Source: Bacilli bacterium
GTDB lineage: Bacteria > Bacillota_I > Bacilli_A > RF39 > UBA660
Reading direction: 5' to 3'
Assembly (NCBI GenBank): GCA_017484205.1
Contig: JAFUTO010000032.1
Span: 77,027 to 141,026, forward strand
DNA length: 64,000 bases
Shown: positions 28,107-42,451 of the stretch, in pieces
How positions within the stretch are numbered: position 1 is the first letter of the stretch
How the letters are laid out: each line of letters begins with the position of its first letter
Made by a program: the position numbers and the translations under genes
The notes under the pieces: generated by a model
The model's input: the letters and a program-made list of their open reading frames with translations, nothing else
Told to the model about the DNA's origin: nothing
Database searches by the model: none

Positions 28107-28397
28107 TTATTTTTCTATCTCCTCATTTAATTCTTTTTCATTAGATATATCATATTTTTTTCTATATTCGTCTAAATGTCTTAGTTCTTCCCTAGTTAAT
28201 AAATCAACCATCCCATGACTATTGTAGACAAATACTTCATCATATAGAAAATCATAGAATTCTTTACCTTTCCATTTATTATCTTCATCATAAGCAACAA
28301 TATTATTATTTTTATCATATTCTAAATTAATATCATAAATTTTGTGTTTATATAAAATATGATCAATTAAATCTAATTCATTATCTAAATATTTCAT
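28107..28397 (-). CDS. hypothetical ICE accessory protein, acidic tail ...NEEIEK
   Basis: ORF track; ATGA overlap with the upstream gene. No recognised domain. Confidence 0.55.
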   Translation of the reverse strand: MKYLDNELDLIDHILYKHKIYDINLEYDKNNNIVAYDEDNKWKGKEFYDFLYDEVFVYNSHGMVDLLTREELRHLDEYRKKYDISNEKELNEEIEK

Positions 28398-28870
28398 CTT
28401 TCTATCTCATTCTCCTCTTCTTTTTCAATGTTTTTAGTATCATTATTTATATCATAATGTTTTCTGTCAGTTTCTAGTTCATTGTAAACAAAATCCAGTC
28501 TATTCTCTTTTGAATAGTCTTTATACTTTTCATATATATCATTCAACAATATTTTAAATGTATTTTTTAATTTATTTATATCAGAATCAGGAGTTGCAGA
28601 TAAACTATAAATAGCAGCTGCTTCACCAGTTAAAACAAAATTACCATTTCTATCCTCAGCAAATATTGAAAAGTGACGAGGATAAATATCAGCACTCAAT
28701 GTAAAAAAGACAGCAAACTTATCTTCTTTAACAGCATTACCACCATAACCCATATACTTAATTTCTTCATCCCTATGGAAATAAACTGTATATCCTTTTT
28801 CTTTCATAAAATCATAAAATATATTTTCTACTGCTTCTTCTTGCTCTAAAAAATTTCTTCTATCTATCAT
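28394..28870 (-). CDS. hypothetical ICE accessory protein, acidic tail ...EEENEIER
   Basis: ORF track; AGGAGGA SD. No recognised domain. Confidence 0.55.
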   Translation of the reverse strand: MIDRRNFLEQEEAVENIFYDFMKEKGYTVYFHRDEEIKYMGYGGNAVKEDKFAVFFTLSADIYPRHFSIFAEDRNGNFVLTGEAAAIYSLSATPDSDINKLKNTFKILLNDIYEKYKDYSKENRLDFVYNELETDRKHYDINNDTKNIEKEEENEIER

Positions 28871-28882
28871 TTTATATCCTCC

Positions 28883-28909
28883 TTATTTTTCTATTTCTTC
28901 TTCTAAATC
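28883..28909 (-). repeat. 27-nt gene-end repeat (copy 1): D-L-E-E-E-I-E-K stop
   Basis: Plus strand TTATTTTTCTATTTCTTCTTCTAAATC is identical to 42236-42262. It shares a 20-nt core ATTTTTCTATTTCTTCTTCT with the 33-nt repeat. Confidence 0.85.
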
Positions 28910-29179
28910 AATTTCTTTTAAATCGTAAATTGAAATTAATGATTTAAATTGAGAATATTGAAAATCACCTTTCATTTCTTCTGATATATAATCAATTATT
29001 TCTTTTACTTCATTAGGATTAAGACTTTTATTATAAACTCTTTCTAATTCCTCTTGCTGCTTTTCTGTACCCATAGACAAAGCTAGTGGTGAATCACTTA
29101 CATATTTCTTATCCATTAAACAATGTGCTAGTGCTTCTCTATATTCAGAATCTAAAGCTGTTAATGTTTCTTCAATCAT
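28883..29179 (-). CDS. hypothetical ICE accessory protein, acidic tail ...LEEEIEK
   Basis: ORF track; the 3-prime end is the 27-nt repeat shared with 42236-42262. Confidence 0.55.
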   Translation of the reverse strand: MIEETLTALDSEYREALAHCLMDKKYVSDSPLALSMGTEKQQEELERVYNKSLNPNEVKEIIDYISEEMKGDFQYSQFKSLISIYDLKEIDLEEEIEK

Positions 29180-29198
29180 ACTTACTGTGATTATTTTA

Positions 29199-29891
29199 CT
29201 AATTTTGTTCTACCTCCATTTCATCTTTATTTTCCTCTATTACTGACTTGTTTTTAGAAAAATGATTTTTAAATTGCTCATATAGTCTATCCATGATTTT
29301 TTCTTGATCCATATCTGGATTAAACCAGTCAATTTCTTCAGTTTCCTTTTTCCAATTATTAAGGTCTATTCTATATCCATACTCTATTTTTGCCTTACCT
29401 TCATTATAAAATAATTCAATAGAATAAGCATAATTAGATAATCTTGCAACACTAGATGAACCTGCATATTCTTTATAACCTGGATAAGTATAATTTTCAC
29501 CTGCTACATAACCTTTCTCTCCAAGTAAATTAATATCAAAATCTTCTAAAATAAATTCATCTAAGTCTAATTGTTCTAATAAATTATCTCTTAATTCTAT
29601 ATATTTATTATAATATTTTAAATGTTCCCTATAATCTTTTTCAGGAACATTATATTTTTTTATAAAGTTTTCAGCTCGTACCTTCCAATATTCTTCTTTT
29701 TCTCCCATTACTAATAAATCTTTAATAGTCCACCCATTAGCATATATTTCATTATAATTTAACACATCTTTATAAAGTGATTCTAAATAACTTGGAATAT
29801 AGTCTTTTATATATTCCAACATAGATAAATCTCCATAATCATAGTTTTTCCTAAATTCTTTTAAATTTATTTCATATAATGGTTTTGTCAT
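29199..29891 (-). CDS. hypothetical ICE accessory protein, tail ...DEMEVEQN
   Basis: ORF track. No recognised domain. Confidence 0.55.
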   Translation of the reverse strand: MTKPLYEINLKEFRKNYDYGDLSMLEYIKDYIPSYLESLYKDVLNYNEIYANGWTIKDLLVMGEKEEYWKVRAENFIKKYNVPEKDYREHLKYYNKYIELRDNLLEQLDLDEFILEDFDINLLGEKGYVAGENYTYPGYKEYAGSSSVARLSNYAYSIELFYNEGKAKIEYGYRIDLNNWKKETEEIDWFNPDMDQEKIMDRLYEQFKNHFSKNKSVIEENKDEMEVEQN

Positions 29892-29894
29892 ATT

Positions 29895-29927
29895 TCTCTC
29901 CTTTTCTATTTTTCTATTTCTTCTTCT
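29895..29927 (-). repeat. 33-nt gene-junction repeat (copy 1): ...EEEIEK stop + AAAAGGAGAGA
   Basis: Plus strand TCTCTCCTTTTCTATTTTTCTATTTCTTCTTCT is identical to 38322-38354. Confidence 0.85.
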
Positions 29928-30520
29928 GGTTCTTTATTTATACTATTTACTTTTTCTACAAGAAAATCTATTTTATCTGATATGGTTTCATATTTATTAC
30001 CATAGCAAAATTCCATTTCTATATTTTCGTTGATTATAGCTTTAAAAGTATTATAAATATCATTCATATTAGTAACTTTAATTGAATGTATCTTAATATC
30101 AAATGATTCAAATAAACGCTTATAAAATTTTTCAAAATCTTTTTCTGTAAAATTTTCTAATGGCATAAGACTTTTAAAACTAACATTAAACTCTGAACCA
30201 ACATTTCTAATTTTTAAAAATCTATTGTTCCATAAATCCATCATTTTTTCTTTATCATACTCTTTAAATAAAAAAATAAAAGTTCCTGTATCTCTTGAAT
30301 TAACACAATTGGTATGATCAATAATTGTTTCGTACTTTCCTTCATCTTGCACTATAATTCTATTACCTGCTTTTAACTTATTTACAATATTCATATATTT
30401 AGGATTATGTAAATCCCTAGGAAAATACTCATATATTCGTAAATAGTGTATAATTGCTTCATTCAAATTATCCCATACATCTAAATTTTTATTTATAAAC
30501 ACATATATAAAATTATTCAT
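29906..30520 (-). CDS. hypothetical ICE accessory protein, acidic tail ...PEEEIEK
   Basis: ORF track; the 3-prime end plus downstream SD is the 33-nt repeat shared with 38322-38354. Confidence 0.55.
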   Translation of the reverse strand: MNNFIYVFINKNLDVWDNLNEAIIHYLRIYEYFPRDLHNPKYMNIVNKLKAGNRIIVQDEGKYETIIDHTNCVNSRDTGTFIFLFKEYDKEKMMDLWNNRFLKIRNVGSEFNVSFKSLMPLENFTEKDFEKFYKRLFESFDIKIHSIKVTNMNDIYNTFKAIINENIEMEFCYGNKYETISDKIDFLVEKVNSINKEPEEEIEK

Positions 30521-31254
30521 TTTTCTATTTCCTCCTCTATTTCATTTTCTATATTTTTTTCTAAATCTTCGCAGTAATTTTTTCTATTAATATTTACAAC
30601 AGGGATAAGATCTTTATCAGAAAATAATTTCATTAATGCCTCTACACCATTTTGCTGTTTATATAACATTTCCTCTCTATATAGTGGAAATACTTGATAA
30701 AAATTAATTCTACCTTTATCTGGTAATGTTAAATCCAAATACTCATAATCTTTATTCAAAGCATTAAGTAAAAGTGTACTAGATAACTTTGTATTACTTG
30801 CAAATGGTTTTGTAGCCTTTTCATCTTCTGAAAAAGAATGTCCAAATCCTATCCATGAATCTTCCATTATTGGTGTTCTAGCAATATTTTTTATTTGACT
30901 TATAACCCATCCATTCTCTTCTTTTTCAAAATCAAAATTCCAATCTGATGGTAAATACATAATTAATTCTGCTCTGTCCAATCCTTCGTCTTTAATAATA
31001 TCTGGAACATTCATTTTATAAGCACCTAATCCTCTAGTAACTAACTTATAAAAATTATTTTTTGAATCAGGTGGAATTATCAATATATCCAAATGAACAT
31101 CAGGTGAATATAGTTCATGATAAACCATATCAAACTCACCAATATTATCTTTTATATATTCTTCGTATAATTTTATATCACTAGCATTGTATACATATTT
31201 TGGTGGTTCTTGTAAACCTTTCAAATAATAATTCATTTTTTTAGTAAAACTCAA
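30517..31254 (-). CDS. SUFU-like (Imm-SUFU type) protein, acidic tail ...IEEEIEK
   Basis: YHELYSPDVHLDILIIPPDSKNNFYKLVTRGLGAYKMNVP...AELIMYLPSDWNF...WVISQIKNIARTPIMEDSWIGFGHSF resembles the bacterial Suppressor-of-fused family (h.D....p......lvT.GmS...m...EL...lp..W......W....l...a......w...GH). Confidence 0.45.
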   Translation of the reverse strand: MSFTKKMNYYLKGLQEPPKYVYNASDIKLYEEYIKDNIGEFDMVYHELYSPDVHLDILIIPPDSKNNFYKLVTRGLGAYKMNVPDIIKDEGLDRAELIMYLPSDWNFDFEKEENGWVISQIKNIARTPIMEDSWIGFGHSFSEDEKATKPFASNTKLSSTLLLNALNKDYEYLDLTLPDKGRINFYQVFPLYREEMLYKQQNGVEALMKLFSDKDLIPVVNINRKNYCEDLEKNIENEIEEEIEK

Positions 31255-31266
31255 ATTATCATCTCC

Positions 31267-32952
31267 TTATTTTCCTTTATAATATTCATTAACCTTTTTC
31301 TTTTCATCTTGAGAAATTTTTTCAATATCCTCACCATTAACTCTTTCTACTTCTTTATCATCTTTGTCATATAATACATATTCTTTATCATCTACTAAAT
31401 AAATAATTCCTCTGGTATCAAAACTAACCCAAGCAATACTCTTTTTAGGAACATAAAAAAAGTATTCACTATATGGAATACGGACACAATATGTATCTGA
31501 TGAAGAGCGTTTTTCATCAATCATATTTTTACTAATAGAAATACTTTTAATATATCCTTTTTCACTTTCTAAAGAAATACCCTTAATCTTTTCTAATTCA
31601 CTAGCTTTATTTTTTAAATAAGTAAGATAAGCATATTTTTGATTCATATCAATTCTCATCTTATTTGCTTCAGAAATAATTTCTTCTACTTCTTCTGGTA
31701 TTTCTACATTTAATTCTTTTTTCAAATCTAAAAATGTTTGAACTTCTTTTGGGAGTTCTGCATCTATTGGATATATTTCTTGTTGCTCTAAGTATCCATT
31801 ATAATCATCTAAATATTTTATATATAAATTACATAATGGAACTCTAAGTTGTAATGTTTCATGTTTTGATAATAAAGAGTTATATTCTGTTTCCCTTTGC
31901 TCTATATCTTTCTTTATTTCATTTAATTGATAATCTAAAGAATCGTAGTTATATATTTCATGACTATTTAAAAAGTTAATTGTATCTACTAACTGATGAT
32001 AACGCCTTACTTCTAAATAGCGAGAATTATAATATTTAAAATATTCAGAGTTAGCATCTAAATCTTGCATAGTATATAAAACTGAATGTTTTGATAAATT
32101 GGCTAGTTGATCATATATATTTAAAATATCACTATCACTAACATTTAATTTATAATCTTCAAAATTAATAACCTTTTGATTTTTTCTCTTTTCTCTGAAA
32201 AATAATTTTAATGCTTCTTCACTATAATCATCACCTAGAATTTTCATTGTTACATATCTTTCTTTTCCATAAGGCTTTATACGAATGTTTTTCCCTTGTT
32301 TAATTAAATATCCTTCTAAAGCAAGTTGCTCTAATAATTCATCAAAAGAATAACATCTATCTTTTAGTGTTTCTATCATTTCAATTATTTGACTTCGCCA
32401 AGATTTATTTGCAAGATTATATAAATATTTATTTTTATGATAATGACCAATCTTTGGAGCATCTTCAATTATATGAAGACCATGTTCTAATGCAATTTGA
32501 TCACTTACATCTCTTAATCCATACAATCCTTCAATTGGATTAGATAGTCTATCTTCTAGTTTTCTACCTTTCAGATTTACAGCTGAAATGCAGAAGTGAT
32601 TATGCAAATGTAAATGGTCTACATGAGTACAAACTACTACTTGAAAATCTGGATATAATTTTTTTGCAAGTTCTATTCCCATTTGATGCACTTCTTCAGG
32701 AGTTAAGTTTTTTTCTTTTGGATCAAATGATTGATAAGCATGATAACATGTTCTACTATCATCATTTTCTTCAATACGAAATTTTTGACTATTTATCTGC
32801 ATCTCATAAGCTGCGAATTCAGAAGAACAATTTATTCCTGTTACTAATGTTCCATCTTTCGTTTTATCTGGATTCTTAATATAGTTAATACAATCAACTC
32901 TTCCTTTTACTCCATGTACTGACCATCTAGCTGTTGCTGGAATAAATATCAC
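31267..32952 (-). CDS. relaxase/mobilisation nuclease (MobA/VirD2 Relaxase-family)
   Basis: ATARWSVHGVKGRVDCINYIKNPDKT N-terminus and the His triad CTHVDHLHLHNHFCISAVN. Start placed at an in-frame GTG (32950-32952). The track ATG at 33015 would give an 89-nt overlap with the MobC-like gene and a non-homologous extension. Confidence 0.75.
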   Translation of the reverse strand: MIFIPATARWSVHGVKGRVDCINYIKNPDKTKDGTLVTGINCSSEFAAYEMQINSQKFRIEENDDSRTCYHAYQSFDPKEKNLTPEEVHQMGIELAKKLYPDFQVVVCTHVDHLHLHNHFCISAVNLKGRKLEDRLSNPIEGLYGLRDVSDQIALEHGLHIIEDAPKIGHYHKNKYLYNLANKSWRSQIIEMIETLKDRCYSFDELLEQLALEGYLIKQGKNIRIKPYGKERYVTMKILGDDYSEEALKLFFREKRKNQKVINFEDYKLNVSDSDILNIYDQLANLSKHSVLYTMQDLDANSEYFKYYNSRYLEVRRYHQLVDTINFLNSHEIYNYDSLDYQLNEIKKDIEQRETEYNSLLSKHETLQLRVPLCNLYIKYLDDYNGYLEQQEIYPIDAELPKEVQTFLDLKKELNVEIPEEVEEIISEANKMRIDMNQKYAYLTYLKNKASELEKIKGISLESEKGYIKSISISKNMIDEKRSSSDTYCVRIPYSEYFFYVPKKSIAWVSFDTRGIIYLVDDKEYVLYDKDDKEVERVNGEDIEKISQDEKKKVNEYYKGK

Positions 32953-33727
32953 CTTCCGTTTCCAATTGCTGACTATATAAATTATATATATAATCTGCTT
33001 CCATCTCTTCTGCATATTTTGATGCTGATTCTTTATCTACAAAAGGCATCACAATACCATATCTTAACTTATCATTGAAACGATAAATAGAAATATATAA
33101 TTCCTTCTTCATAGCAATTTGACGATAGTTGTCAATTTTCTCTTTAAACTTATCTGGATTGAAATTTTTAATTTCAATTTCATCATAGTATTCTGGTAAA
33201 AAAACAATATATATAACAGCTTCATTTGGATGATATAAATTAGAAGGTCTTAATACCAATCCCCATTCACCAGCAATTTGTATTTTAGGTATCAATTTAT
33301 CTGAATCATATTTTTCTATCATATTAATTCTTTGTTGAATTTTCTTTTCTGAATTAACAGACAAGGAAGAAATTACAATTCTTGATAATCTACCTATCTT
33401 TTCTATAATTTGTTGATTCTGAATTTTTATTTTATCAACATCTTCTTTTGTTAGAAAAACATTTTTTATTAATTTTCTTTGAACATTTAATAGTTCTCTT
33501 AACTCTTTTATATATTCACTAACCTTATTACAAACTTTTTCTTTTCCATGAACATCTTCAACATAAATGTTTTCATATATACATGCTGCTCTTATATATT
33601 CGGCTAAGCAATCTCCAAATCCATATTTAATAGCTTTTTCTTTTATTATTTTTCGTTCTTCTTCATTAAGCATCACATTTATCTTTTGTCTTCTTAATTT
33701 ACTATATTTTTCGTCTTGATTGCTCAT
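32927..33727 (-). CDS. MobC/RHH-like relaxosome accessory protein
   Basis: RRQKINVMLNEEERKIIKEKAIKYGFGDCLAEYIRAACI fits the MobC pattern (r...v.v.lt.eE...i..kA...g.s.seYiR); immediately upstream of the relaxase. Confidence 0.5.
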   Translation of the reverse strand: MSNQDEKYSKLRRQKINVMLNEEERKIIKEKAIKYGFGDCLAEYIRAACIYENIYVEDVHGKEKVCNKVSEYIKELRELLNVQRKLIKNVFLTKEDVDKIKIQNQQIIEKIGRLSRIVISSLSVNSEKKIQQRINMIEKYDSDKLIPKIQIAGEWGLVLRPSNLYHPNEAVIYIVFLPEYYDEIEIKNFNPDKFKEKIDNYRQIAMKKELYISIYRFNDKLRYGIVMPFVDKESASKYAEEMEADYIYNLYSQQLETEGDIYSSNS

Positions 33728-34262
33728 ACATTATCCTTTTCTTTTTTTGAAGATCCAATTTATACAATTCTAAATTTTCTAAATATGAAGTACGAAAATA
33801 ATTTTCACTTAGCCATTTAACTCCTTCTTTTGAAACTAAAACTTTCCCATCTTCTAAATATTGTTGAGAAAAATTATTATTTCTCATACGAATTAAAGCT
33901 ACATATATTGTGTTAATACTTTTATCAAAAAATATAGACAATTCCCTAACTGTCATAGGATTATATTCTATCTCTTTATGAGGGATACCCAATTCTTTTT
34001 CTAATCGTAATATTTGTCTTCTAAAAAATTCTATATCCAAATCTAAATAATATTTTTTTTCATTTGAATATACATCCCTTAACCATTCAACAAATTCTAA
34101 TTTAAAATATACAACTCTCTGACCATTGGATGCTATTCTCTCATCTATCCATTCTTCCAATGGATGTCTTTTTATCATCTTTTTTATTGCTATATCCATC
34201 TGTTTATCAGTCATATTAAAATTTTTCTGCACTCTCCACTTTTCCTGAACTTTAAATTCCAT
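33702..34262 (-). CDS. hypothetical DNA-binding protein (first gene after the oriT-like region)
   Basis: ORF track; internal HTH-like MTVRELSIFFDKSINTIYVALIRM. Confidence 0.35.
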   Translation of the reverse strand: MEFKVQEKWRVQKNFNMTDKQMDIAIKKMIKRHPLEEWIDERIASNGQRVVYFKLEFVEWLRDVYSNEKKYYLDLDIEFFRRQILRLEKELGIPHKEIEYNPMTVRELSIFFDKSINTIYVALIRMRNNNFSQQYLEDGKVLVSKEGVKWLSENYFRTSYLENLELYKLDLQKKKRIMYEQSRRKI

Positions 34263-34264
34263 AT

Positions 34265-34420: not shown

Positions 34421-34789
34421 TTAATAATATTTTTCATTTTCATCTATTTCTAATGATGAAAAATAATCCAAACTATTATAAAAAACTGCTTCAGAAATTT
34501 CACCTGAAGTAGCTTTTTCTAAATCATTTTTTGTTAAATTTCCTCTTGTATAATGATCAGTTAGATAATGAGAAATTGAATAAGGATTTATATTTTCATT
34601 CTCAACTTTTGATGTAATTTTATAAATAAATTTTGCATCTTCTTCATCAATATCAGGAAAACAATCATATATTCCTTTAAAAATATAATAAGATTTTAAA
34701 TTCTCTTTATGAGTTTCTGGCATAGTTTTATATATTGAAAATATATCCAAATTAATCAACCTCTCTTTCATCAATATCTTCAATTTCAA
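34421..34789 (-). CDS. hypothetical ICE accessory protein (paralog of 34752..35093)
   Basis: ORF track; shares the pattern I.K.S.V.....P.SI...L....Y with the upstream ORF; tail ...EIDENEKYY. Confidence 0.5.
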   Translation of the reverse strand: MKLKILMKERLINLDIFSIYKTMPETHKENLKSYYIFKGIYDCFPDIDEEDAKFIYKITSKVENENINPYSISHYLTDHYTRGNLTKNDLEKATSGEISEAVFYNSLDYFSSLEIDENEKYY

Positions 34790-35093
34790 GAGGGTTTCCT
34801 AATTCTTTTCCATTGTTATACCAATCATAGAAATCATCTACTGATAATGATTTTATTTGGTCAATTGTTATATTTTTTTCTTCATAAACTTCATTTGCAA
34901 GTGATTGTCCTATTGATATTGGATCTGTATAATCTCCATGAACTTCTGAACACTTTTTTATCAATAATTCTAACTCTTCTTTTGGAATATCATTTTTAAC
35001 ATTTGTCAAACCAATATAAAAGCAATAATCATAAATATTATAATCATCAAATGATGCTGAATATTCTTTTATTTTTTCAAAAGATTCTATCAT
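34752..35093 (-). CDS. hypothetical ICE accessory protein, acidic tail ...EIEDIDEREVD
   Basis: ORF track; ATGA-type overlap with ArdC. Confidence 0.5.
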   Translation of the reverse strand: MIESFEKIKEYSASFDDYNIYDYCFYIGLTNVKNDIPKEELELLIKKCSEVHGDYTDPISIGQSLANEVYEEKNITIDQIKSLSVDDFYDWYNNGKELGNPLEIEDIDEREVD

Positions 35094-36037
35094 ATATCCA
35101 TCTCCATTTCTTGTTCTATTTCGTTTATTTGAACTTTTTCTTTTTTAATACTATTTTCTTCTAAATAATCTACAATTTTGTTAGCATCTGTTATTGCATT
35201 AAACAATTCTTGTGGATTATTTTTTAATATTTCTAACCAATTCTTTACATAACTTTTATGATTATCTAAATGCCTTTTATCCTCTTCCAAATGAAACTTT
35301 TGCATTAAAAAAGAAGAACTAATTTCTGCTCTTAATTCTTCTTTGGCATAGCCTTCAGTTCCAAAATGGTCTTTCATATTTCTTGATAATCTTGATTCAT
35401 GTCCTGTTGAATGAGCTAATTCGTGAAGTTGTGTAGCATAATAAGAATTACTTGTTTTAAAAGTATTTGATGGTGGCAAAACAACTATATCTTTTGAAGG
35501 ACTATAATAAGCATTTTCTCCTTCTTCTTTATATCCAACGCCTATATTATCAATTATATTTTGAATATAATCATTACTAATAATTTCTTGTTTTTGTTCT
35601 GTTTTATCATTAACCAATCCATCAACTAAATCTCCATTGAATACTGTATAACTCATTTTACTTATTTTAAATTCTTTTTCTTTTTCAGGATTTTCTTCAA
35701 TAATTTTATTATATTCTTCAAAACTTATAATCTTATTATCTTTTTTATTTTTCATTGCCCACCATTCAACTGGTACACCTTTACCTTTTGCTGAACCAAT
35801 AAATTTCCAATGCTTTTTTCCCATTTGATTAAATGTAATCCATCTATTATCTTTATATCCTCTTTTATAAGCAATGTATGATAAATATAAATTATTTACA
35901 CCTCTATATTTTATTCCAGAAATAGCATTTTCAGGAATAGAAGTCTTCCACATTTGCTCCCATGGAATGTTTCCTTCCTCTAAACTTTTTATATACATAT
36001 CAATTAAATCTTGTCTAGTTTTTGGAAGTTTACTCAT
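35090..36037 (-). CDS. ardC: ArdC-like antirestriction protein (ssDNA-binding N-domain + zincin metalloprotease)
   Basis: N-terminal IPWEQMW...YRGVNNLYL...RWITFNQ (DUF1738/ArdC-N) and C-terminal HELAHSTGHESRLSR (HExxH). Tail ...EIEQEMEMDI. Confidence 0.8.
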   Translation of the reverse strand: MSKLPKTRQDLIDMYIKSLEEGNIPWEQMWKTSIPENAISGIKYRGVNNLYLSYIAYKRGYKDNRWITFNQMGKKHWKFIGSAKGKGVPVEWWAMKNKKDNKIISFEEYNKIIEENPEKEKEFKISKMSYTVFNGDLVDGLVNDKTEQKQEIISNDYIQNIIDNIGVGYKEEGENAYYSPSKDIVVLPPSNTFKTSNSYYATQLHELAHSTGHESRLSRNMKDHFGTEGYAKEELRAEISSSFLMQKFHLEEDKRHLDNHKSYVKNWLEILKNNPQELFNAITDANKIVDYLEENSIKKEKVQINEIEQEMEMDI

Positions 36038-36974
36038 ATTCTATTTCATCCATTTCTTGTTCTTGAGCTATCTCTTTATCTGTCATTTCATAAAATATAG
36101 GAATTGTAATTTCGTTAAATAAATCTTTATATACATACTTATTTTCATTAACTATAAATATATCTGACTCACTATCTTTTAATATTTCTCTAATATCTAT
36201 CATTCTTCTTATATCTCTTGATAACCTAGAAATATTAACAGAATATAGATCTAAAGTTTTATTATTTTTTATATCCTCTAATGCTTTTCCAAATGCTTTT
36301 TCATGATTTTTTAATCCTGAACATCTATCAAAATATATTCTTATTAATTCAGTATTTCCTTTAGCATTTTGATTAATAGAATACAAACATTTATCAATTT
36401 GGTTTTTTATAGCAATCATAGATTCACCTTGAACATTATCTACACGACAATAAATTGAATATAATTTATTATCTTTATTTTGTTCCCAAATCATATCTAA
36501 AACTTCATCTACTGCTTCCTTTAAAGAATCTGAATCCATTACATCATCATATTCTATTTCACCATCTTTATTATAAAAAGACAATTCAAACCAGTTATTA
36601 TTATCAATATCTAGTTCATATAATTCGTGTTTTTCGTTTAATATATCTAATAATTCATTATCATCTTTGATATATAATGACATCTCATCTTTAAATGCTC
36701 CAACTTCATTTTTATCTTTAACATGAGCAATTAAATTTCCTGCTTTTATTTGTTCACCATCAGGCGTTATATAATCTTTTTTTGCAATTAAATCACAAGA
36801 TACTATTCCTCTAGCAACAATTTTATATTCACCTTCTGAAGACTTTATACTTGCTACTTCTCCACCATACCAGAAAACATTATCATGATTTGGTTCTTCA
36901 TTTTCTTGAATTTTTATATCAACATTTAATCTTGTATATCCGTTTGGTGATATTTTTCCACGAACTAAATTCAT
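36030..36974 (-). CDS. two-domain protein: unknown N-domain + resolvase-like catalytic domain with Ser-to-Asp substitution, no DNA-binding domain
   Basis: YSIYCRVDNVQGES...RIYFDRCSGLKNHEKAFGKALEDIKNNKTLDLYSVNISRLSRDIRRMIDIREILKDSESDIFIVNEN aligns with gamma-delta-type resolvase (YaRVSt.qQ...ifsDk.SG....Rp.l..ll......D.lvv..lDRLgRd......i...l...gv.f). The nucleophile position reads D. Tail ...EQEMDEIEYE. Confidence 0.5.
   Translation of the reverse strand: MNLVRGKISPNGYTRLNVDIKIQENEEPNHDNVFWYGGEVASIKSSEGEYKIVARGIVSCDLIAKKDYITPDGEQIKAGNLIAHVKDKNEVGAFKDEMSLYIKDDNELLDILNEKHELYELDIDNNNWFELSFYNKDGEIEYDDVMDSDSLKEAVDEVLDMIWEQNKDNKLYSIYCRVDNVQGESMIAIKNQIDKCLYSINQNAKGNTELIRIYFDRCSGLKNHEKAFGKALEDIKNNKTLDLYSVNISRLSRDIRRMIDIREILKDSESDIFIVNENKYVYKDLFNEITIPIFYEMTDKEIAQEQEMDEIEYE
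36034..36064 (-). repeat. 31-nt gene-junction repeat (copy 1) spanning ...EQEMDEIEY and the ATG of ardC
   Basis: Plus strand TCATATTCTATTTCATCCATTTCTTGTTCTT is identical to 58713-58743. Confidence 0.85.
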
Positions 36975-37189
36975 TATTTATCTCCTAATATTTTAGTATC
37001 AAGATCTTGTTGCATTTGATAGATTTTTTCTTGTTGTTTTTTATAATCATATAATACTTTTAACTGTTTATCATAATCGGATATTACAACATTAATAGCA
37101 TCTATTTTATCTAGTTCCTTCTTCTTTAGTGCTTCTAACTTATCAATTTTTTTCTCTAATGGTTTATTCAAAATTAATTCTCCTTTCAT
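36974..37189 (-). CDS. hypothetical coiled-coil protein (71 aa)
   Basis: ORF track; overlaps neighbours at both ends (translational coupling). Confidence 0.45.
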   Translation of the reverse strand: MKGELILNKPLEKKIDKLEALKKKELDKIDAINVVISDYDKQLKVLYDYKKQQEKIYQMQQDLDTKILGDK

Positions 37190-37743
37190 ATTTCTAATTC
37201 ATATTCTTCATCAATATTATTTAATTCAAAAGATTTATCTGTTTCTTTATAACAATTATCAAGAATCCATTTAAAATTTTTTGAAATATTTTCATCTTCT
37301 CTAAGTAATAATCCTTGCCATATTCCTTTAATATGATTTATTCCATTTAAAAACTTTATTCCTGTTCCTCCTGCCTCTTTCCAATCAAGAAGATTCTTTG
37401 TATGGTCATCAATTAAATAATCAAATGAAGTAATTTTACTAGGTAAATATTTATATTTAATATCACCATAAGGAACAAAAATTCTCTTTTCAATTGGTAA
37501 CTCTGGAAGATATTTATTTAACCAATTATTTTTTTCTTTTAAAGCATAATCACTATCACTTAAAAAAGAAGAAAGAATATAAATATCCTTTCCTTCTCTA
37601 ATAAGTTTTTTAGTTTCTTCTAATATATAATTGTTTGGTTTTAATGATTCATAATAACCTTTTTGATATAATTCATTATTTGATTGAATATTTTTCCATT
37701 CGGCAAGAGTACCGTCCATATCAATGAAAATTCTTGTTTTCAT
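37186..37743 (-). CDS. HAD-superfamily 5-prime(3-prime)-deoxyribonucleotidase-like phosphatase
   Basis: IFIDMDGTLAEW (DxDG.L motif I), ILSS (motif II), IDDHTKNL (motif III/IV region); size and pattern as NT5C-type dNMP nucleotidases. Tail ...DEEYELEI. Confidence 0.6.
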   Translation of the reverse strand: MKTRIFIDMDGTLAEWKNIQSNNELYQKGYYESLKPNNYILEETKKLIREGKDIYILSSFLSDSDYALKEKNNWLNKYLPELPIEKRIFVPYGDIKYKYLPSKITSFDYLIDDHTKNLLDWKEAGGTGIKFLNGINHIKGIWQGLLLREDENISKNFKWILDNCYKETDKSFELNNIDEEYELEI

Positions 37744-37745: not shown

Positions 37746-37949
37746 TTATTTATCTAATTCAACTTCATCTTTTAATGGAACTTTTTCATAATCAATATAG
37801 CTCTCAATATAACTTTCAATAGAGTTTTTTAAATCTCCAATTGTTTCGCATTTATATTTAGTACCTGATGAAGACGGAGTGCCAATATAAACAGTTTTTT
37901 CTTCTTTAGAAAATACTATTTCAAGTTCAATATCATCTTTTATAATCAT
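37746..37949 (-). CDS. hypothetical ICE accessory protein (67 aa), tail ...DEVELDK
   Basis: ORF track; ATGA overlap with ssb. Confidence 0.45.
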   Translation of the reverse strand: MIIKDDIELEIVFSKEEKTVYIGTPSSSGTKYKCETIGDLKNSIESYIESYIDYEKVPLKDEVELDK

Positions 37950-38317
37950 TTATCAATTTCCTCCTCTACTTCATCATTTAAAATAGTTTTATCTTGATTT
38001 TTGCTGTGAGATAGATAATCAATATTATCAACAACAATATCAGTATATTTAGTTTTTTGACCATCTTTTTCTACTAATCTAGTTTGTATTGATGCTTCTA
38101 TAAGAACTAAATCACCTTTTAATAAATGGTCTGATTTTTTTACTGCTCTTTCATTCCATGCTGTTAAATCTATAAAGTTTGCTTCGTGTTCACCATTTTC
38201 ATTTGTGTATGGTTTTGGTACAGCAATAGTAATACTAGCATAATTTTTTCCTGCTTCAGTTTGTTTTAATTCTGGTTTTGATACCATTCTTCCTACAAGT
38301 AATGTTTGATTTAACAT
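37946..38317 (-). CDS. ssb: single-stranded DNA-binding protein with non-canonical acidic tip
   Basis: MLNQTLLVGRMVSKPELKQTEAGKNYASITIAV...FIDLTAWNERA......KGDLVLIEASIQTR is an SSB OB fold. The C-terminus is ...DEVEEEIDK instead of the usual D-D-D-(I/L)-P-F. Confidence 0.85.
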   Translation of the reverse strand: MLNQTLLVGRMVSKPELKQTEAGKNYASITIAVPKPYTNENGEHEANFIDLTAWNERAVKKSDHLLKGDLVLIEASIQTRLVEKDGQKTKYTDIVVDNIDYLSHSKNQDKTILNDEVEEEIDK

Positions 38318-38321: not shown

Positions 38322-38354
38322 TCTCTCCTTTTCTATTTTTCTATTTCTTCTTCT
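38322..38354 (-). repeat. 33-nt gene-junction repeat (copy 2)
   Basis: Identical to 29895-29927 by direct comparison. Confidence 0.85.
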
Positions 38355-38713
38355 AATTCTACTTCGTTTTTCTTCTCAAATTTCATACTTAATAACCTAC
38401 TATTGGTATAAAAAGATTCCAAATCTTTAACATTTAATGGTTCTACTCCAAACCAGTTTTTAGATGATTCTTTAGTATATCCAAATGTTAATCCCTTTGT
38501 TATTTGAAATTCAAAAACAAGATAATTTGGATTCTTATTATTAATTCTTGCCAGATGCTGCCAATCTGAAAAATTTCTATAATCTTTAAGAAGTTTTCCA
38601 ATTCCTAAATCGTCTAAAAATTTTCGGAATTTATTAAACTCTTCTTCATTTGATACCATTATAGAATTAATTCCAGCGATAAAGTCTAGCCATTTATTCT
38701 CTTCGTTTATCAA
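38333..38713 (-). CDS. hypothetical ICE accessory protein, acidic tail ...LEEEIEK
   Basis: ORF track (TTG start after AGGAGA); the palindrome operator variant lies just upstream. Confidence 0.5.
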   Translation of the reverse strand: MINEENKWLDFIAGINSIMVSNEEEFNKFRKFLDDLGIGKLLKDYRNFSDWQHLARINNKNPNYLVFEFQITKGLTFGYTKESSKNWFGVEPLNVKDLESFYTNSRLLSMKFEKKNEVELEEEIEK

Positions 38714-38730
38714 TTAAATCTCCTTTCTGT

Positions 38731-38748: not shown

Positions 38749-38763
38749 ATAATTTTAAAAAAA

Positions 38764-39804
38764 TTATATCTCTATTTCTAAATCTTCTTCTACTTCTTTA
38801 TCTTTAGATGATGATAAATCATAATGATAAAGTTCATTCTTACCATAAGTAATGGAAGTTATATTTGAAAAGTTAAATTCTTCTGTCCATCTGCTTGTTT
38901 CTTCCTGAGAATTTTCTTTAATAAATTTTGATACTTCTTCATAAGCTTTACCATATCCACTACTGCCTTTACTATCATTAGTTAAATCTCTTTTTAATGC
39001 ACTATATTCATATTTAAATGTTAAACTTTTATCTCCATATTGAATTGTTATATTAACTGTTTTTGCATCAATATCTTTAATAGAATTATATATATTTCTT
39101 TTTATATATAAATCTTTAAATTCATTATTTTTATTTTCTTTTATAATATCTAAATATTCAATCTTATCACGGAATATTAGCAATTCAAGTCCTAATTCCT
39201 CTTTATTATTTCTATAATCATCTATTGTTTCTATAATTTTATTAGAATACTTTTCAACAGTCTTTTGAGGATTATTTAAATATTCAACATCTATATAATG
39301 TCCCTTATATTCTGGAATGTTTGTGAATTCATAACTTGAATATGACTTTTGAAGTTTTATTATTGGATTCATTTCTTCAACAAATTGTTCTCTTACATCT
39401 CTCTTATAACTATCTATCCTATAATCTTCTAAATGATTATATTTTTCAATAGCTATATCTTTTAATTTTTCTTCATTGGCGAATGAATATTTCTCTATAT
39501 AATCTTGTATTTCATTCCACAATTTTTCACCCAAAACACCAAAAGAACTTTTTTCAATTAAGTTCTTTTCTTTAGGTAATAATTCATTTAAATAATAAGT
39601 GCAATTATATAATACTCTATCTTTTGTATCCAAATATCCTGCTACTTCATAATCATTTTGTGATAAATAACTATTATTTGTTTTAGTATATATAACAACA
39701 AATCTATCATCAAATTTCTCTTTATGAATTTTTTGATGATTATAAGTACCTTCAAAAACTAAATCATTAACATCAGGATTTAAAAGAAATTTTTCTATAT
39801 CCAT
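38764..39804 (-). CDS. hypothetical ICE accessory protein, paralog A, tail ...EVEEDLEIEI
   Basis: ORF track; colinear similarity with 39826..40842, including the identical DAKTVNITIQYGDKSLTFKYE. Confidence 0.55.
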   Translation of the reverse strand: MDIEKFLLNPDVNDLVFEGTYNHQKIHKEKFDDRFVVIYTKTNNSYLSQNDYEVAGYLDTKDRVLYNCTYYLNELLPKEKNLIEKSSFGVLGEKLWNEIQDYIEKYSFANEEKLKDIAIEKYNHLEDYRIDSYKRDVREQFVEEMNPIIKLQKSYSSYEFTNIPEYKGHYIDVEYLNNPQKTVEKYSNKIIETIDDYRNNKEELGLELLIFRDKIEYLDIIKENKNNEFKDLYIKRNIYNSIKDIDAKTVNITIQYGDKSLTFKYEYSALKRDLTNDSKGSSGYGKAYEEVSKFIKENSQEETSRWTEEFNFSNITSITYGKNELYHYDLSSSKDKEVEEDLEIEI

Positions 39805-39825
39805 ATTGTATAATCACCCCTTTAA

Positions 39826-40842
39826 TTACATTTCTATTTCTAAATCTTCTTCTACTTCTTTTTCTGGAGTTGGAACATCTTTACTATATATTTCATTCTT
39901 TCCACTTGTTATAGAACTAATCGTAGGAATAGAAAAAGGACATTTCCATTGGTTTTTATCAGCAAGATTAGGATTATTTGCTTTTACAAAATCTGATACT
40001 ATTCCATAACTACTTGTATAACTTGAAGTTTCCATTTTACCACTTGATAATGCACTTCTTAAATCATCAAGTTCATATTTAAATGTTAAACTTTTATCTC
40101 CATATTGAATTGTTATATTAACTGTTTTTGCATCAACATATTTAATTGAATCAAGTATTTTTTTGCAAGAATGAATATCATCAAAAGCATTATCTTTATT
40201 CTCTTGTAATTCTTTTAAATAGCTTACCTTATCGTGGTAAATTAATAATTCTAATCCATAACTTTTTCCGTTTCTTTCAATAAATCTTTTAGATATTTCT
40301 TCTATTGCTTTTTTTGGATTATTTAAATATGAAATAATATTATTATCATAATCAATGTCATAATTGCTGATTGAGATTGTTAAATCTGCTGTTGGATTAT
40401 CCTTAGTGATAAAAAGTTTATTAATTTCTTTTTTATATTCAAATAATCTTGTATCATCCTTTGTATCATATTTTTCCTGAGCTAATTTAGTTAAATCTTT
40501 TTCATGAGCAAAACAATAATCATTTATATATTGCTTTACTTCATCTAAGATTTTTTGATTTAAATTATCAAATCTATCAAACTTTATAACATCACTTTCT
40601 TGAATTTTATCAGTTAAAAATTTTTCTGCATTATATATACAATGTGCCTTATTATCATAATATCCACATAAATTATAATAACTACGATTTTGCCTTAAAG
40701 TGTCTTGATTTTCTTTAATATATAAAAGATCAAACCTATCATCATAGTGTTCTTTATGAAGTTTGTATTCTTTTTGTTGATAATCAAATACTTCATCATT
40801 TGCTTTTACATCTAATAAAAAATTTTCTATTTTACTATACAT
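39826..40842 (-). CDS. hypothetical ICE accessory protein, paralog B, tail ...EVEEDLEIEM
   Basis: ORF track; tandem duplicate of 38764..39804. Confidence 0.55.
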   Translation of the reverse strand: MYSKIENFLLDVKANDEVFDYQQKEYKLHKEHYDDRFDLLYIKENQDTLRQNRSYYNLCGYYDNKAHCIYNAEKFLTDKIQESDVIKFDRFDNLNQKILDEVKQYINDYCFAHEKDLTKLAQEKYDTKDDTRLFEYKKEINKLFITKDNPTADLTISISNYDIDYDNNIISYLNNPKKAIEEISKRFIERNGKSYGLELLIYHDKVSYLKELQENKDNAFDDIHSCKKILDSIKYVDAKTVNITIQYGDKSLTFKYELDDLRSALSSGKMETSSYTSSYGIVSDFVKANNPNLADKNQWKCPFSIPTISSITSGKNEIYSKDVPTPEKEVEEDLEIEM

Positions 40843-40862: not shown

Positions 40863-41444
40863 TTAATAATCCATTTCCATATCATCATTTTCCATTTCAT
40901 AATCATCATTATTATTTGAATTAAGTTGTTGCTCAGTATCTTGTTTTATACGATTTAATTCAATAGATTCTTGATTTTCAAGAAAATTAGATATTTCCAT
41001 TGCTTCTGCTTGAATGTTAGGATCTGTTATCGCTCTATGGTATTCATTAGATATTTCTTGATTAAAGAAATGGAATTCTTTCTTTTCAGTTCTTTGTTTA
41101 TCTTGAATATAATCATAAGTATGATTTATCGCAATTTGTTCTGATAATCTTAAATCTTTTGGATTTAAATTGTTATCAATACATATTAACGCTTGATAGA
41201 AAAGTTGCTCATTATCTTTCTTTAAAGCGTTTAATTGACCATACATGATTGTTAAAAATTGTCTGTTGACTGATTGACTAATTGCTCTTTCTACTTCTTG
41301 TCCAAATTCTTTTTCAAAATGAGATGCAGGTACTTTGGTAGGTTGATGCGTTTCTGGATTTGTATATTTAAAAACTATATCTTCAAGTGTTTTTGACATT
41401 TCTTTTGGTTTTTGTTGAATAAAATCATCATAAAATTTTCTCAT
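40863..41444 (-). CDS. hypothetical ICE accessory protein, tail ...ENDDMEMDY
   Basis: ORF track. No recognised domain. Confidence 0.5.
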   Translation of the reverse strand: MRKFYDDFIQQKPKEMSKTLEDIVFKYTNPETHQPTKVPASHFEKEFGQEVERAISQSVNRQFLTIMYGQLNALKKDNEQLFYQALICIDNNLNPKDLRLSEQIAINHTYDYIQDKQRTEKKEFHFFNQEISNEYHRAITDPNIQAEAMEISNFLENQESIELNRIKQDTEQQLNSNNNDDYEMENDDMEMDY

Positions 41445-41465
41445 AAATTCTTTTCTCCTTTTCTA

Positions 41466-41804
41466 TTAAATATTTATTTCTATATCACTAACTTCTTTAT
41501 TACTAACTGACTTACTTTCTATTTGATGCTGTAAATTTTTATAATCTTCCATTTCAATTAGTTCTAATAAATTTTGTGCTTTTTCACCAGATAAACGAGT
41601 ATATGGTGCATTGAACAAAAATCTATCTTGAACCATTTTTATAATTTCATCTATTGATTCTTTAGAAGATATTTCTCCATCTAGTTCTAATACTCCACCA
41701 TCCATGTTATGACCTTTAGAATTATAAATTGTATAATCACATTTATCTCCATCATTAAATATATGAAGAATATTATTCTCATTACTAATTATTAAAGTAT
41801 CCAT
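41466..41804 (-). CDS. hypothetical ICE accessory protein, tail ...EVSDIEINI
   Basis: ORF track. No recognised domain. Confidence 0.5.
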   Translation of the reverse strand: MDTLIISNENNILHIFNDGDKCDYTIYNSKGHNMDGGVLELDGEISSKESIDEIIKMVQDRFLFNAPYTRLSGEKAQNLLELIEMEDYKNLQHQIESKSVSNKEVSDIEINI

Positions 41805-42181
41805 TATTCATCTCCACCAGATACCAAAGTTATAATTATTTCTAAAGGTTCACACAATGGACATGAATCACAATCTTCATTATCATCTTCAGCAATATCA
41901 TCATCTAATAATGATTCCATTTCTGTTATATTATCTTCATTATCTATTTGATTTGATGGAAGATAACCAGCTAAAACAAGTAAATGAATGAAGTCTATTT
42001 TTAAAACTTCACACATTCTAATTAATGTAACTAAATTATAATTTTCTCTTTCACCATGTTCAATTCTTGATACTTCTGTATCACTAATTCCAACAATGGC
42101 TGCTAATTTTCTTTTACTATAACCTAACATTACTCTTCTTTTTCTAAATACTTCAGCAATAAAACCATAATTATTTTTCAT
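41804..42181 (-). CDS. XRE-family transcriptional regulator with acidic, Cys-containing C-terminal extension
   Basis: GYSKRKLAAIVGISDTEVSRIEHGERENYNLVTLIRMCEVLKIDFIHLL is a Cro/C1-type HTH. Start moved to MKNNYGF (42181); the track N-terminus MSTIVDK is created by the upstream palindrome. Confidence 0.7.
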   Translation of the reverse strand: MKNNYGFIAEVFRKRRVMLGYSKRKLAAIVGISDTEVSRIEHGERENYNLVTLIRMCEVLKIDFIHLLVLAGYLPSNQIDNEDNITEMESLLDDDIAEDDNEDCDSCPLCEPLEIIITLVSGGDE

Positions 42182-42201
42182 AAATATTCTATCCTTTCTT
42201 T

Positions 42202-42219
42202 TGTCTACAATAGTAGACA
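42202..42219. promoter_or_regulatory. palindromic operator-like site TGTCTAC-AATA-GTAGACA (copy 1)
   Basis: Perfect 7-4-7 inverted repeat ~20 nt upstream of the XRE regulator start. A 23-nt block including it is identical to the one at 50032-50049. Confidence 0.45.
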
Positions 42220-42235
42220 TTTTAATCAAAAAAAA

Positions 42236-42262
42236 TTATTTTTCTATTTCTTCTTCTAAATC
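42236..42262 (-). repeat. 27-nt gene-end repeat (copy 2)
   Basis: Identical to 28883-28909. Confidence 0.85.
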
Positions 42263-42451
42263 CTGTTCAATAGTAGTTTTATTAAATAATCTATCTTCTG
42301 AAACATCTATATCAAAATCATATTGCATATTTGAAGTAATATAAGAAATCATCATATCTTCCAAATCTTCAGGGCTTTGAATATCCATTCCTGCTTCTAA
42401 AAATGTTTCTTTGTTTTCTTCAAATAATTCTTTTATATACTCTTTATTCAT
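42236..42451 (-). CDS. hypothetical ICE accessory protein (71 aa), acidic tail ...LEEEIEK
   Basis: ORF track; the 3-prime end is the 27-nt repeat shared with 28883-28909. Confidence 0.5.
   Translation of the reverse strand: MNKEYIKELFEENKETFLEAGMDIQSPEDLEDMMISYITSNMQYDFDIDVSEDRLFNKTTIEQDLEEEIEK

Follow-up and report, generated by a model that had tools for sequence, protein, structure and literature searches.

Why should roughly one in two of the proteins encoded by a conjugative element of an uncultured gut bacterium, otherwise unrelated to one another, end in the same short acidic-hydrophobic C-terminus? Within the window, i.e. the whole 64,000-nucleotide stretch that was analysed, this tail is a short linear motif of about 8–10 acidic residues alternating with I, L or M, placed on a flexible linker C-terminal of the folded domain and terminating in E-h-E-[K/R/Y/I/M]-COOH. 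The consensus reads variable linker, then [DE]-x-[DE]-x-[DE]-[ILM]-[DE]-[K/R/Y/I/M]-COOH, with K or R as the terminal residue in 39% of tails. All 22 C-termini listed in the earlier note were found where it had placed them, every one on the minus strand.

For counting, a strict rule was used, namely [DE][ILMVFYC][DE] plus 0–2 terminal residues, together with at least four acidic residues in the last ten. By this rule 21 of 46 element ORFs in the window are tailed but none of the 34 chromosomal ones (Fisher p = 8.8e-7), so that the equal frequency on chromosomal proteins which would have spoken for a trivial origin was not seen. Shuffling the residues (n = 1000) gave a mean of 0.59 matches and a maximum of 4, and at internal positions of the same proteins the rule was matched in only 0.8–1.2%. 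Loci of the same element family gave 105 tailed proteins among 355 unique ORFs (30%), and 70 unrelated ArdC or T4CP loci gave 10 among 1253 (0.8%). The observation is confirmed as real and far above chance. DivIVA and SepF, which the earlier note had thought vaguely similar, were correctly identified according to Pfam, but their ends (DDIEKIDF, EDLDIQW) fall outside the strict rule.

The carriers, all on the minus strand, lie mainly between positions 28107 and 42451. A 96-aa ORF without known domain (28107..28397, ...ELNEEIEK) belongs to a family tailed in 15 of 17 members that includes the 113-aa ORF at 34752..35093 (...EIEDIDEREVD). It is followed by ORFs of 158 aa (28394..28870, ...EEENEIER; ATGA overlap with the next gene, Shine-Dalgarno (SD) sequence provided by GAG GAG codons), 98 aa (28883..29179, ...DLEEEIEK, stop, separate GGAGG), 230 aa (29199..29891, ...DEMEVEQN) and 204 aa (29906..30520, ...EPEEEIEK, stop, separate AAGGAG). 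In the 245-aa SUFU-domain protein (30517..31254; PF05076, 9.6e-36, residues 52–225; family tailed 4/5) the tail ...EIEEEIEK lies about 20 aa past the domain end. The 122-aa ORF at 34421..34789 has a marginal tail (...SLEIDENEKYY; family 10/22), and its orthologues in related loci have clear ones (..ELEMEYD, ..DMEIEYE). ArdC (35090..36037, 315 aa, ArdC-N plus zincin MPTase-PolyVal) ends in ...EIEQEMEMDI, a disordered extension of residues 301–315. The adjoining 314-aa protein with a resolvase-N-like domain (36030..36974, ...EQEMDEIEYE; family 6/8) shows RVD at the position of the resolvase RVS motif. An NT5C/HAD nucleotidase of 185 aa (37186..37743, ...DEEYELEI) has relatives of two kinds, some with E-h-E tails and others ending in ..DITDDM[YF]. 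Next to it are a 67-aa ORF (37746..37949, ...KDEVELDK; family 4/4) and a 123-aa SSB (37946..38317, OB fold residues 2–100), in which ...DEVEEEIDK replaces the canonical D-D-D-[IL]-P-F tip. The block continues with a 126-aa ORF (38333..38713, ...ELEEEIEK, stop, separate AAGGAG), a 346-aa ORF (38764..39804, ...EVEEDLEIEI; family 17/18) with a 50-nt gap and no coupled gene after it, its 338-aa paralogue (39826..40842, ...EVEEDLEIEM), a 193-aa ORF (40863..41444, ...ENDDMEMDY; family 12/12), a 112-aa LPD16-like ORF with a weak or marginal tail (41466..41804, ...EVSDIEINI) and a 71-aa ORF (42236..42451, ...DLEEEIEK; family 8/9).

Further carriers, again on the minus strand, are ORFs of 292 aa (56261..57139, ...DLDLELER, then a 136-nt gap), 149 aa (57161..57610, ...EVEEDIDLEK) and 132 aa (58706..59104, ...EQEMDEIEYDR) and a 342-aa N6/N4 DNA methylase (57688..58716, ...VELDDCELER, then a 77-nt gap; family 3/3). 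Pfam bore out the domain annotations proposed earlier for the SUFU, ArdC-N plus MPTase, resolvase-N-like, NT5C/HAD, SSB and N6_N4 MTase proteins. A loose tail (...DKDEEPEIAR; family pattern EE.E[IL][AD]R) is present in a conserved 401-aa ORF without known domain (52002..53207, minus strand), directly upstream of the T4CP gene and overlapping it; its AF2 model was poor (pLDDT 59) and fold comparison with it returned no match.

Other minus-strand genes of the element encode proteins without tail. These are the relaxosome genes (31267..34262; a 186-aa basic protein, a NikA-like protein and the MobA/VirD2 relaxase), the T4SS channel genes (43529..50050; TrbC/VirB2-like, VirB6-like, PrgI, VirB4, CHAP hydrolase and an Ig-like protein of 140 aa) and the VirD4-like T4CP of the CD1115 family (50069..52027). 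The last has a lineage-specific C-terminal extension (residues ~582–652) with conserved ..GLxFVKVKPEFKAR.. and ..LTDELLxxL-COOH. The absence of the tail from recombinase, sortase, relaxase, NikA-like protein, CHAP hydrolase, VirB4, T4CP, primase and adhesins, noted before, holds; at the family level it was never present in relaxase, VirB4, CHAP, PrgI, T4CP (0/91), regulators, recombinase or sortase.

The tail is conserved as a peptide. Among ArdC homologues of 55–89% identity, 81 of 95 distinct C-ends show the strict motif and 91 of 95 a loose one; the preceding linker varies in sequence and length, and the motif positions are anchored to the C-terminus. Residues 301–315 of ArdC are modelled with pLDDT <50, the rest of the model being confident, and R388 ArdC ends about 6 residues past the domain. 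At least 36 non-homologous families of related elements are tailed, 23 of them with at least two members, and among the carriers in relatives are LPD1 domains and, in L028, a polyvalent protein of 2542 aa. Orthologous tails vary in nucleotides and residues with the acidic/hydrophobic pattern kept, and the same motif is written in different codons in elements of 51–55% GC (L028, L095). The tail is a selected, heritable peptide feature, independent of the fold to which it is attached; it is highly enriched, strictly C-terminal and confined to accessory proteins of one element clade. No earlier description of such a tail was found in the literature.

Most plausibly it looks like an address tag for delivery via the conjugation channel. 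We put the probability at roughly 45% that it serves the Gram-positive VirD4/VirB4 system as a recruitment signal, like the Legionella E-block, both the partner and the translocation being what we infer. According to this model the accessory proteins would be recognised, through the tail, by the substrate receptor of the type IV secretion system, for which the CD1115-family coupling protein or one of its partners is a candidate, and would be delivered into the recipient cell along with the DNA; the cargo would comprise proteins for anti-restriction, for protecting ssDNA, for modifying DNA and for other tasks in conflict or establishment. Such a coupling-protein signal, already suggested in the earlier note, is the best fit, on circumstantial grounds, because the tail is found on accessory proteins and is absent from the machinery, because the tail class tracks the element family, and because Dot/Icm offers the E-block precedent. 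It is also favoured because the carriers (ArdC, SSB, orphan methylase, LPD16 domain and other polyvalent-protein domains, as well as nucleotidase and SUFU-like protein) are proteins that one would expect to work in the recipient. SSB, PsiB and ParA/B are among the many proteins that F-type systems translocate (PMC8406263, PMC11288057).

Several points speak against secretion. The only certain substrate, the relaxase, has no tail, and neither has the primase; many carriers lie in the expected leading region, and early expression in the recipient could make injection unnecessary; it would be unusual for conjugation to inject more than 20 different proteins; and the C-terminal signals known from conjugative or VirB/D4-type systems are basic or hydrophobic and not acidic (PMC11288057). 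The relation to the coupling protein is two-sided. Acidic tails are present in each of the five sampled elements whose T4CP is at least 48% identical and in none of those with T4CPs of ~30–34% identity, an association confounded by the common ancestry of whole elements; yet a Saccharofermentans element (L021) has similar acidic tails with a T4CP just 25% identical. In favour of a tail class that goes with the element family, ArdC-containing proteins of many other families, though not all, have basic, Arg-terminal tails, and some basic tails or 50–100 aa C-terminal modules are common to unrelated neighbours (..GINSKR/..GGNGKR; ..VRKVRAR/..RKNVRTR; ..PDIGLER twice).

It is possible, if rather unlikely, that the tail docks onto a common cytoplasmic hub instead of a secretion apparatus, which would bring the accessory proteins together on DNA entering or leaving the cell; the hub might be a scaffold encoded by the element or the host, ssDNA coated with SSB, or the relaxosome. 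Acidic C-terminal tails commonly serve as docking peptides, as in the SSB tip and T7 gp2.5/gp4. The TraD tail docks with TraM (PMC8406263). A conserved, disordered, fold-independent C-terminal peptide would suit such a role, the tail of the element SSB sits precisely at the partner-binding tip position, and small conserved basic proteins without tail lie amid the carriers (36974–37189, pI ~9; 33702–34262, pI 9.4). However, the SSB-tip-like docking put forward earlier is not supported in that form, as no tail has a terminal Pro-Phe and the element SSB itself lacks a canonical tip, the tail standing there instead. The L021 SSB continues from ELPF into a further acidic tail that would bury the canonical tip. 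No candidate hub protein was identified, and a hub leaves the change from basic to acidic tail class with element family unexplained.

We regard as doubtful that the tail controls protein fate, with no specific partner complex, whether by stabilising proteins, by timing their degradation by a protease of the host or the element, or by keeping overexpressed small proteins soluble. The tails are acidic disordered extensions, ArdC itself includes a metalloprotease domain, and most carriers are already acidic (body pI 4.1–6.8), but the hydrophobic/acidic alternation and C-terminal anchoring are too specific for a solubility bristle, the C-terminal degrons known from bacteria are non-polar, and neither the machinery nor the regulatory proteins of this element have any tail.

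The idea, also raised earlier, that gene cassettes share a DNA-level junction or recombination site of which the tail is a functionless by-product is very improbable, and such a site is largely refuted as the cause. At 28883, 29906, 38333 and 42236 the tail codons are, as the earlier note had read them, TTA/CCA GAA GAA GAA ATA GAA AAA plus stop, with a separate GGAGG-type site after the first three; three junctions within the element have the identical 21-nt TTAGAAGAAGAAATAGAAAAA, those at 29895–29933 and 38322–38360 agree over 39 nt at 95% identity, SD included, and block gene content varies between related elements. But the repeats do not exceed 39 nt and are limited to tail codons and SD, orthologous tails diverge, the peptide class is also encoded by GC-rich codons, and operon ends have tails too; an integron-type integrase and attC-like structure are absent, the sole recombinase being a large serine recombinase. 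Local recombination or gene conversion may account for the identical LEEEIEK junctions in this single element.

That the tail is an artefact, produced by AT-rich composition together with SDs lying inside the 3' ends of genes coupled in translation, is hardly credible and is refuted: 63 of 117 unique tail genes do overlap or abut the next gene, with a GAG share of Glu codons of 0.32 in their last 8 codons vs 0.13 in gene bodies, but in the other 54, which have no next gene or are separated from its start by 6 nt or more, that share is only 0.09–0.11, so that the peptide persists where no SD is needed. Conversely, 118 genes overlap their downstream neighbour and have no tail. Two further loci of low GC (L048, L064) and the 34 chromosomal ORFs in the window are tail-less, and tails occur at 51–55% GC. 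The tail is, as the earlier note had held, not merely an embedded SD but a protein-level signal, present with or without a following gene, which accommodates the SD through the choice of GAG vs GAA.

Among known systems, the SSB tip, T7 gp2.5/gp4 and the TraD tail are likewise acidic, disordered C-terminal peptides; unlike the SSB tip, the element tail has no obligatory aromatic residue and occurs on more than 20 non-SSB proteins. Substrates of VirB/D4 systems such as VirE2, VirF and MobA have positively charged C-terminal signals, and F, pKM101 and RP4 move proteins with C-terminal or internal ones (PMC11288057, PMC8406263). These signals are also C-terminal and unstructured, serve a T4CP of VirD4 type and accompany element-encoded SSB and anti-defence or maintenance proteins, but they are of opposite net charge and loosely defined by charge or hydrophobicity, whereas the element has a recognisable consensus on about half its proteins. 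The polyvalent proteins of conjugative elements and phages (Iyer et al. 2017, PMC5512222), in whose account no such tail appears, share the repertoire of ArdC-N, MPTase, LPD1/LPD16 and methylase and a presumed early role in the invaded cell; in the element these domains are separate small proteins with one tail each, not fused, and the L028 polyvalent protein bears the same tail. The E-block of Legionella and Coxiella is a Glu-rich C-terminal Dot/Icm signal to which DotM, a member of the DotL-DotM-DotN coupling complex, binds, with recognition proposed to occur through basic surface patches of DotM (PMC5802825). No DotM, DotN or IcmSW homologue was detected in the element, whose system is of the Gram-positive VirD4 (CD1115)/VirB4 (CD1110-like) conjugation type, not type IVB. 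Both signals are Glu-rich, unstructured, C-terminal and common to many unrelated proteins, with hydrophobic residues near the very end; the element motif is shorter, strictly terminal and regular in its acid/hydrophobic alternation, and its carriers, unlike the eukaryote-directed Dot/Icm effectors, are proteins of a conjugative element aimed at bacteria.

The window has ~25% GC and nearly all of its genes lie on the minus strand. Its first part (1 to ~24,000) is chromosomal and includes DivIVA and SepF, both confirmed by Pfam, and an integrative conjugative element (ICE) extends from 24,399 to the window end. [quoted passage not shown] Within this machinery, Pfam and NCBIfam recognised T4SS-DNA_transf/TraG-D_C (VirD4-type), VirB4-like, PrgI, TrbC and CHAP. 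The 158 nt that precede the mob operon (34263–34420) were searched for an oriT-like hairpin with no convincing result, and the leading region is therefore assigned by inference only.

A conserved motif of ~35 nt occurs three times in the window (38700–38790, 42171–42261 and 50001–50091; 0.42 expected by chance), with its core CTACAATAGTAG at 38734, 42205 and 50035. It consists of T7-8, a TTGAC/ATGTC-like box and the imperfect palindrome CTACTATTGTAG, and is followed by AGAAAGGA and a start codon; the copies lie upstream of a 126-aa gene, the HTH regulator gene at 41804 and the TrbC-like gene at 49688. The motif is probably a promoter/operator, possibly used by the HTH protein, and the sequence ‘MSTIVDK’ at the N-terminus of two ORFs is likely to be an artefact of it.

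All of the acidic C-termini listed in the earlier note for otherwise unrelated ICE proteins were found at the coordinates reported there. A tail was scored strictly as [DE][ILMVFYC][DE] followed by 0–2 terminal residues, with four or more of the final ten residues acidic. By this rule it is present in 21/46 element ORFs of the window versus 0/34 chromosomal ORFs (Fisher p = 8.8e-7), so that the chromosomal comparison called for in the earlier note bears out the enrichment, as does the shuffled one, where per-protein shuffles gave 0.59 matches on average and never more than 4. Away from the C-terminus, these proteins satisfy the rule at only about 1% of positions. Across loci of the same element family it holds for 105 of 355 unique ORFs (30%), and for 10 of 1253 ORFs (0.8%) in 70 unrelated loci that carry ArdC or a related T4CP.

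When 116 unique tails were aligned at their final E-h-E, the consensus read [DE]-x-[DE]-[h/E]-[DE]-[ILM]-[DE]-[Y/K/R/I/M], sometimes extended by E or A before the C-terminus, with the anchor 0–2 residues from the protein end. Acidic enrichment extends over the last 8–10 residues, the preceding linker being variable and K/N/S-rich; positions −2 to −8 are 56–68% acidic except for the hydrophobic position −3 (32%), and the tail is strongly net negative. In the predicted model of ArdC (315 aa, 35090–36037; overall pLDDT 86) residues 301–315 fall below 50, and the solved structure of R388 ArdC ends ~6 residues past the homologous domain, so the tail is taken to be a flexible appendix. The tail of a 401-aa protein (52002–53207, minus strand) is likewise modelled with pLDDT <50. 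The motif lies at the extreme C-terminus, in a segment modelled as unstructured, as is typical of T4SS C-terminal signals in general.

Conservation of the tail in homologues, another point raised earlier, was confirmed for ArdC: of the 95 distinct C-ends among the best 120 homologues (55–89% identity), 81 carry the strict and 91 the loose motif. Clustering of every ORF from the element and from 20 related loci showed the presence of the tail to be a property of the family: it was found in 17/21 members of the ArdC family, 17/18 of a 346-aa family, 12/12 of a 193-aa family, 8/9 of a 71-aa family, 4/5 of the SUFU family (30517–31254 in the window) and 3/3 of the methylase family (57688–58716). 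Altogether it is carried by 36 non-homologous families, more than ten of which are missing from the window. Among the families examined it never occurs on the relaxase, the 186-aa accessory protein, VirB4, CHAP, sortase, recombinase, HTH regulator or several small conserved proteins; PrgI, the TrbC-like protein, the relaxase accessory proteins and the primase also lack it, as do all 91 T4CPs. The tail is thus shared by unrelated proteins encoded with the T4SS and absent from the channel components. Its carriers, which comprise ArdC, SSB (37946–38317), an orphan methylase, a nucleotidase and proteins with SUFU-like and LPD domains, with LPD1 proteins and a polyvalent protein added by the relatives, are proteins whose site of action is expected to be the recipient.

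A PHROGs search of ten unannotated carriers returned no matches. Tandem paralogous genes at 38764–40842 encode proteins of 346 and 338 aa, with a 220-nt stretch 74% identical and near-identical tails (EVEEDLEIEI/EVEEDLEIEM); this family matches neither Pfam nor PHROG and is among the best-conserved carriers (17/18). The tail-bearing product of 36030–36974 contains a resolvase-N-like domain (residues 174–297) in which RVD replaces the catalytic RVS of serine recombinases; the domain is probably inactive and repurposed. Related elements also have another type of conserved tail, ..D-I-[TV]-D-[DE]-M-[YF]-COOH, on NT5C/HAD proteins (homologues in comparison loci L006–L018), a 259–494-aa family and a PcfJ-domain protein (L098, 18438–19934).

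The tail follows the element family. Acidic tails are present in every element examined with a T4CP 48–76% identical to that of the window; those with T4CPs ~30–34% identical have none, among them E. faecalis pKUB3007-4, of the same T4SS type and architecture. Close relatives were found neither among sequenced plasmids (ArdC ≤41%, T4CP ≤36% identity) nor among IMG/VR viral contigs (ArdC ≤35%). One acidic-tail relative, L095, has a T4CP assigned by NCBI to Faecalibaculum rodentium. This 51-kb contig (ENA ERZ1755924) has a ToxN toxin and a Rep3-type replication gene, so that it could represent a plasmid instead of an ICE; it might serve as an experimental system. Similar acidic tails with a very different T4CP were seen in a Saccharofermentans element (L021).

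The simplest mechanism would be that the tail recruits its carriers to the coupling apparatus for injection into the recipient. We give this reading a probability of roughly 0.45, since the correlation between T4CP clade and tail is confounded by ancestry, the T4CP of the Saccharofermentans element is divergent, and the relaxase and primase are tail-less. A non-secretory role, in which the tail would dock its carriers onto a hub, is less probable. Even with a partner outside the T4SS the finding would stand: a short linear motif on at least 36 unrelated families of one mobile-element clade implies a hub interaction organising the accessory proteome of the element. The SSB-tip-like form of docking proposed in the earlier note was not supported, as the [IL]-P-F tip is missing. 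That the tail instead controls the fate of the proteins bearing it we regard as improbable.

That the tail is an artefact of composition or of Shine-Dalgarno (SD) sequences embedded in coupled genes is largely excluded. The codons do respond to the next gene, GAG making up 0.32 of Glu in the last eight codons where it overlaps, compared with 0.09–0.11 where it does not and 0.13 in gene bodies. An SD by-product would be confined to genes with a next start within ~15 nt and GGAGG-like codons; the tails occur in three contexts (next gene overlapping, a stop with a separate GGAGG, and nothing for 50–136 nt), and GAA is chosen where no SD is required. Of 117 unique tail genes across the family, 54 have no next start within 5 nt, and 118 coupled genes have no tail. 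These figures, together with the GAG shares, indicate that the peptide stays the same while synonymous codons accommodate the SD. With regard to composition, the low-GC loci L048 and L064 are devoid of tails, and the same tail class is found at 55% GC in L028 (EEDEAELEM, SDDYEMEL, QQEDELEL) and at 51% GC in L095 (DTEMEMEL, FDFEYEM, EEIEEMYER). The controls (chromosomal ORFs, internal positions, shuffles and low-GC loci) and the codon analysis thus agree with the earlier view that the tail is not merely an embedded SD.

A by-product of DNA cassette junctions, also suggested earlier, is likewise largely excluded as the cause, because the direct repeats at gene junctions reach just 39 nt; they are coding and consist of tail codons and SD. 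Orthologous tails vary in nucleotides and residues while keeping the pattern. The junctions do not present an integron-like attC, that is, an inverted-repeat element with a cognate integrase, and the element has no IntI-type integrase, its sole recombinase being the large serine recombinase. Several LEEEIEK junctions within this element are identical, which may reflect local gene conversion; such conversion would follow from the tail and not give rise to it. Slippage by −1 at ..GAA AAA TGA, yielding fusion proteins, was dismissed because the site is present at only 2 overlapping junctions.

With respect to recruitment by the coupling apparatus, the T4CP has a lineage-specific C-terminal extension (residues ~582–652; window 50069–50283) with a conserved, alternating hydrophobic/basic ..ELGLxFVKVKPEFKAR.. 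and a conserved acidic-hydrophobic end, ..KSLTDELLxxL. Alignments with plasmid T4CPs of the same family stop at residue ~580. The gene for the 401-aa protein, a conserved family, lies directly upstream of the T4CP gene. A DotM-like receptor was considered for this protein and rejected, the family itself ending in a tail-like EE.E[IL][AD]R; it is probably another carrier. Pfam and NCBIfam gave no domain, and Foldseek against the PDB gave nothing at E ≤ 0.001, the AF2 model being poor (pLDDT 59, pTM 0.35). Its N-terminus is invariant (MDGNAKHDLEHT), and the family occurs very widely across gut metagenomes; a variant 60% identical (P0206) occurs in 1290 collection blocks on contigs of up to 868 kb, and some relatives contain an internal repeat insertion of ~40–50 aa.

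In many other element families, proteins containing ArdC have basic, Arg-terminal tails, and some basic tails, or C-terminal modules of 50–100 aa, are common to unrelated neighbours. The sequences suggest that family-specific C-terminal address modules may be general among ICE families. The examples come from Clostridia ICE families. In L025 (8716–11077) ..PDIGLER occurs twice, on a common 50-aa C-terminal region. In L033 (37–11629) and L047 (5999–11629) an ArdC protein and a 2629-aa or 574-aa protein share a ~96-aa C-terminal module ending ..GGNGKR/..GINSKR, and ends in L040 (9986–12668) are ..VRKVRAR and ..RKNVRTR.

More tentatively still than injection itself, we propose that a widespread clade of Gram-positive conjugative elements from gut Bacilli and Erysipelotrichaceae-like bacteria, including the element attributed to the cultured species F. 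rodentium, would load more than 20 proteins into the T4SS through such a tag, with the addresses of each ICE family co-evolving with the T4CP. The tag, ..E-x-E-h-E-h-E-[K/R/Y], would be simple and transplantable, placed on unrelated anti-defence and establishment proteins; a modular effector repertoire would enter the recipient before the DNA or along with it, as the unfused counterpart of polyvalent proteins. Addresses would be acidic here and basic elsewhere, each matched to its own coupling protein. To our knowledge, protein transfer in conjugation is known only for a few Gram-negative plasmids, with poorly defined signals. Should the tail prove to be a T4SS address, Gram-positive conjugation would gain its first clear consensus signal; the proteins that an element injects could be deduced straight from its sequence, dozens of uncharacterised small proteins would become candidate anti-defence/establishment factors, and a short portable tag would be at hand for protein delivery between gut bacteria.

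Literature searches gave no description of the tail. The lack of Pro-Phe sets it apart from an SSB tip (PF endings in 0/116 unique tails; the element SSB ends EEEIDK). The Saccharofermentans SSB (L021, 5375–5791) ends ..DPELPFDDGLEP, a canonical ELPF tip followed by a further acidic tail (DDGLEP), which would mask the free carboxylate of the tip. Dot/Icm E-blocks are alike in composition, the tails being Glu-rich within the last ~30 residues, and Glu-rich C-terminal signals are read there by basic patches of DotM (PMC5802825). However, the type IVB DotL/DotM/DotN (IcmSW) coupling complex is not that of this element, where scans of the machinery with Pfam/NCBIfam gave no DotM, DotN or IcmSW; with neither a type IVB system nor DotM here, the tail falls outside the E-block family. 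VirB/D4-type signals differ in being net positive, Arg-rich C-termini, whereas the tails here are net negative. F-type systems move SSB, PsiB and many other proteins into recipients (PMC8406263, PMC11288057). By analogy, the acidic tail would act in like manner to T4SS C-terminal signals in general.
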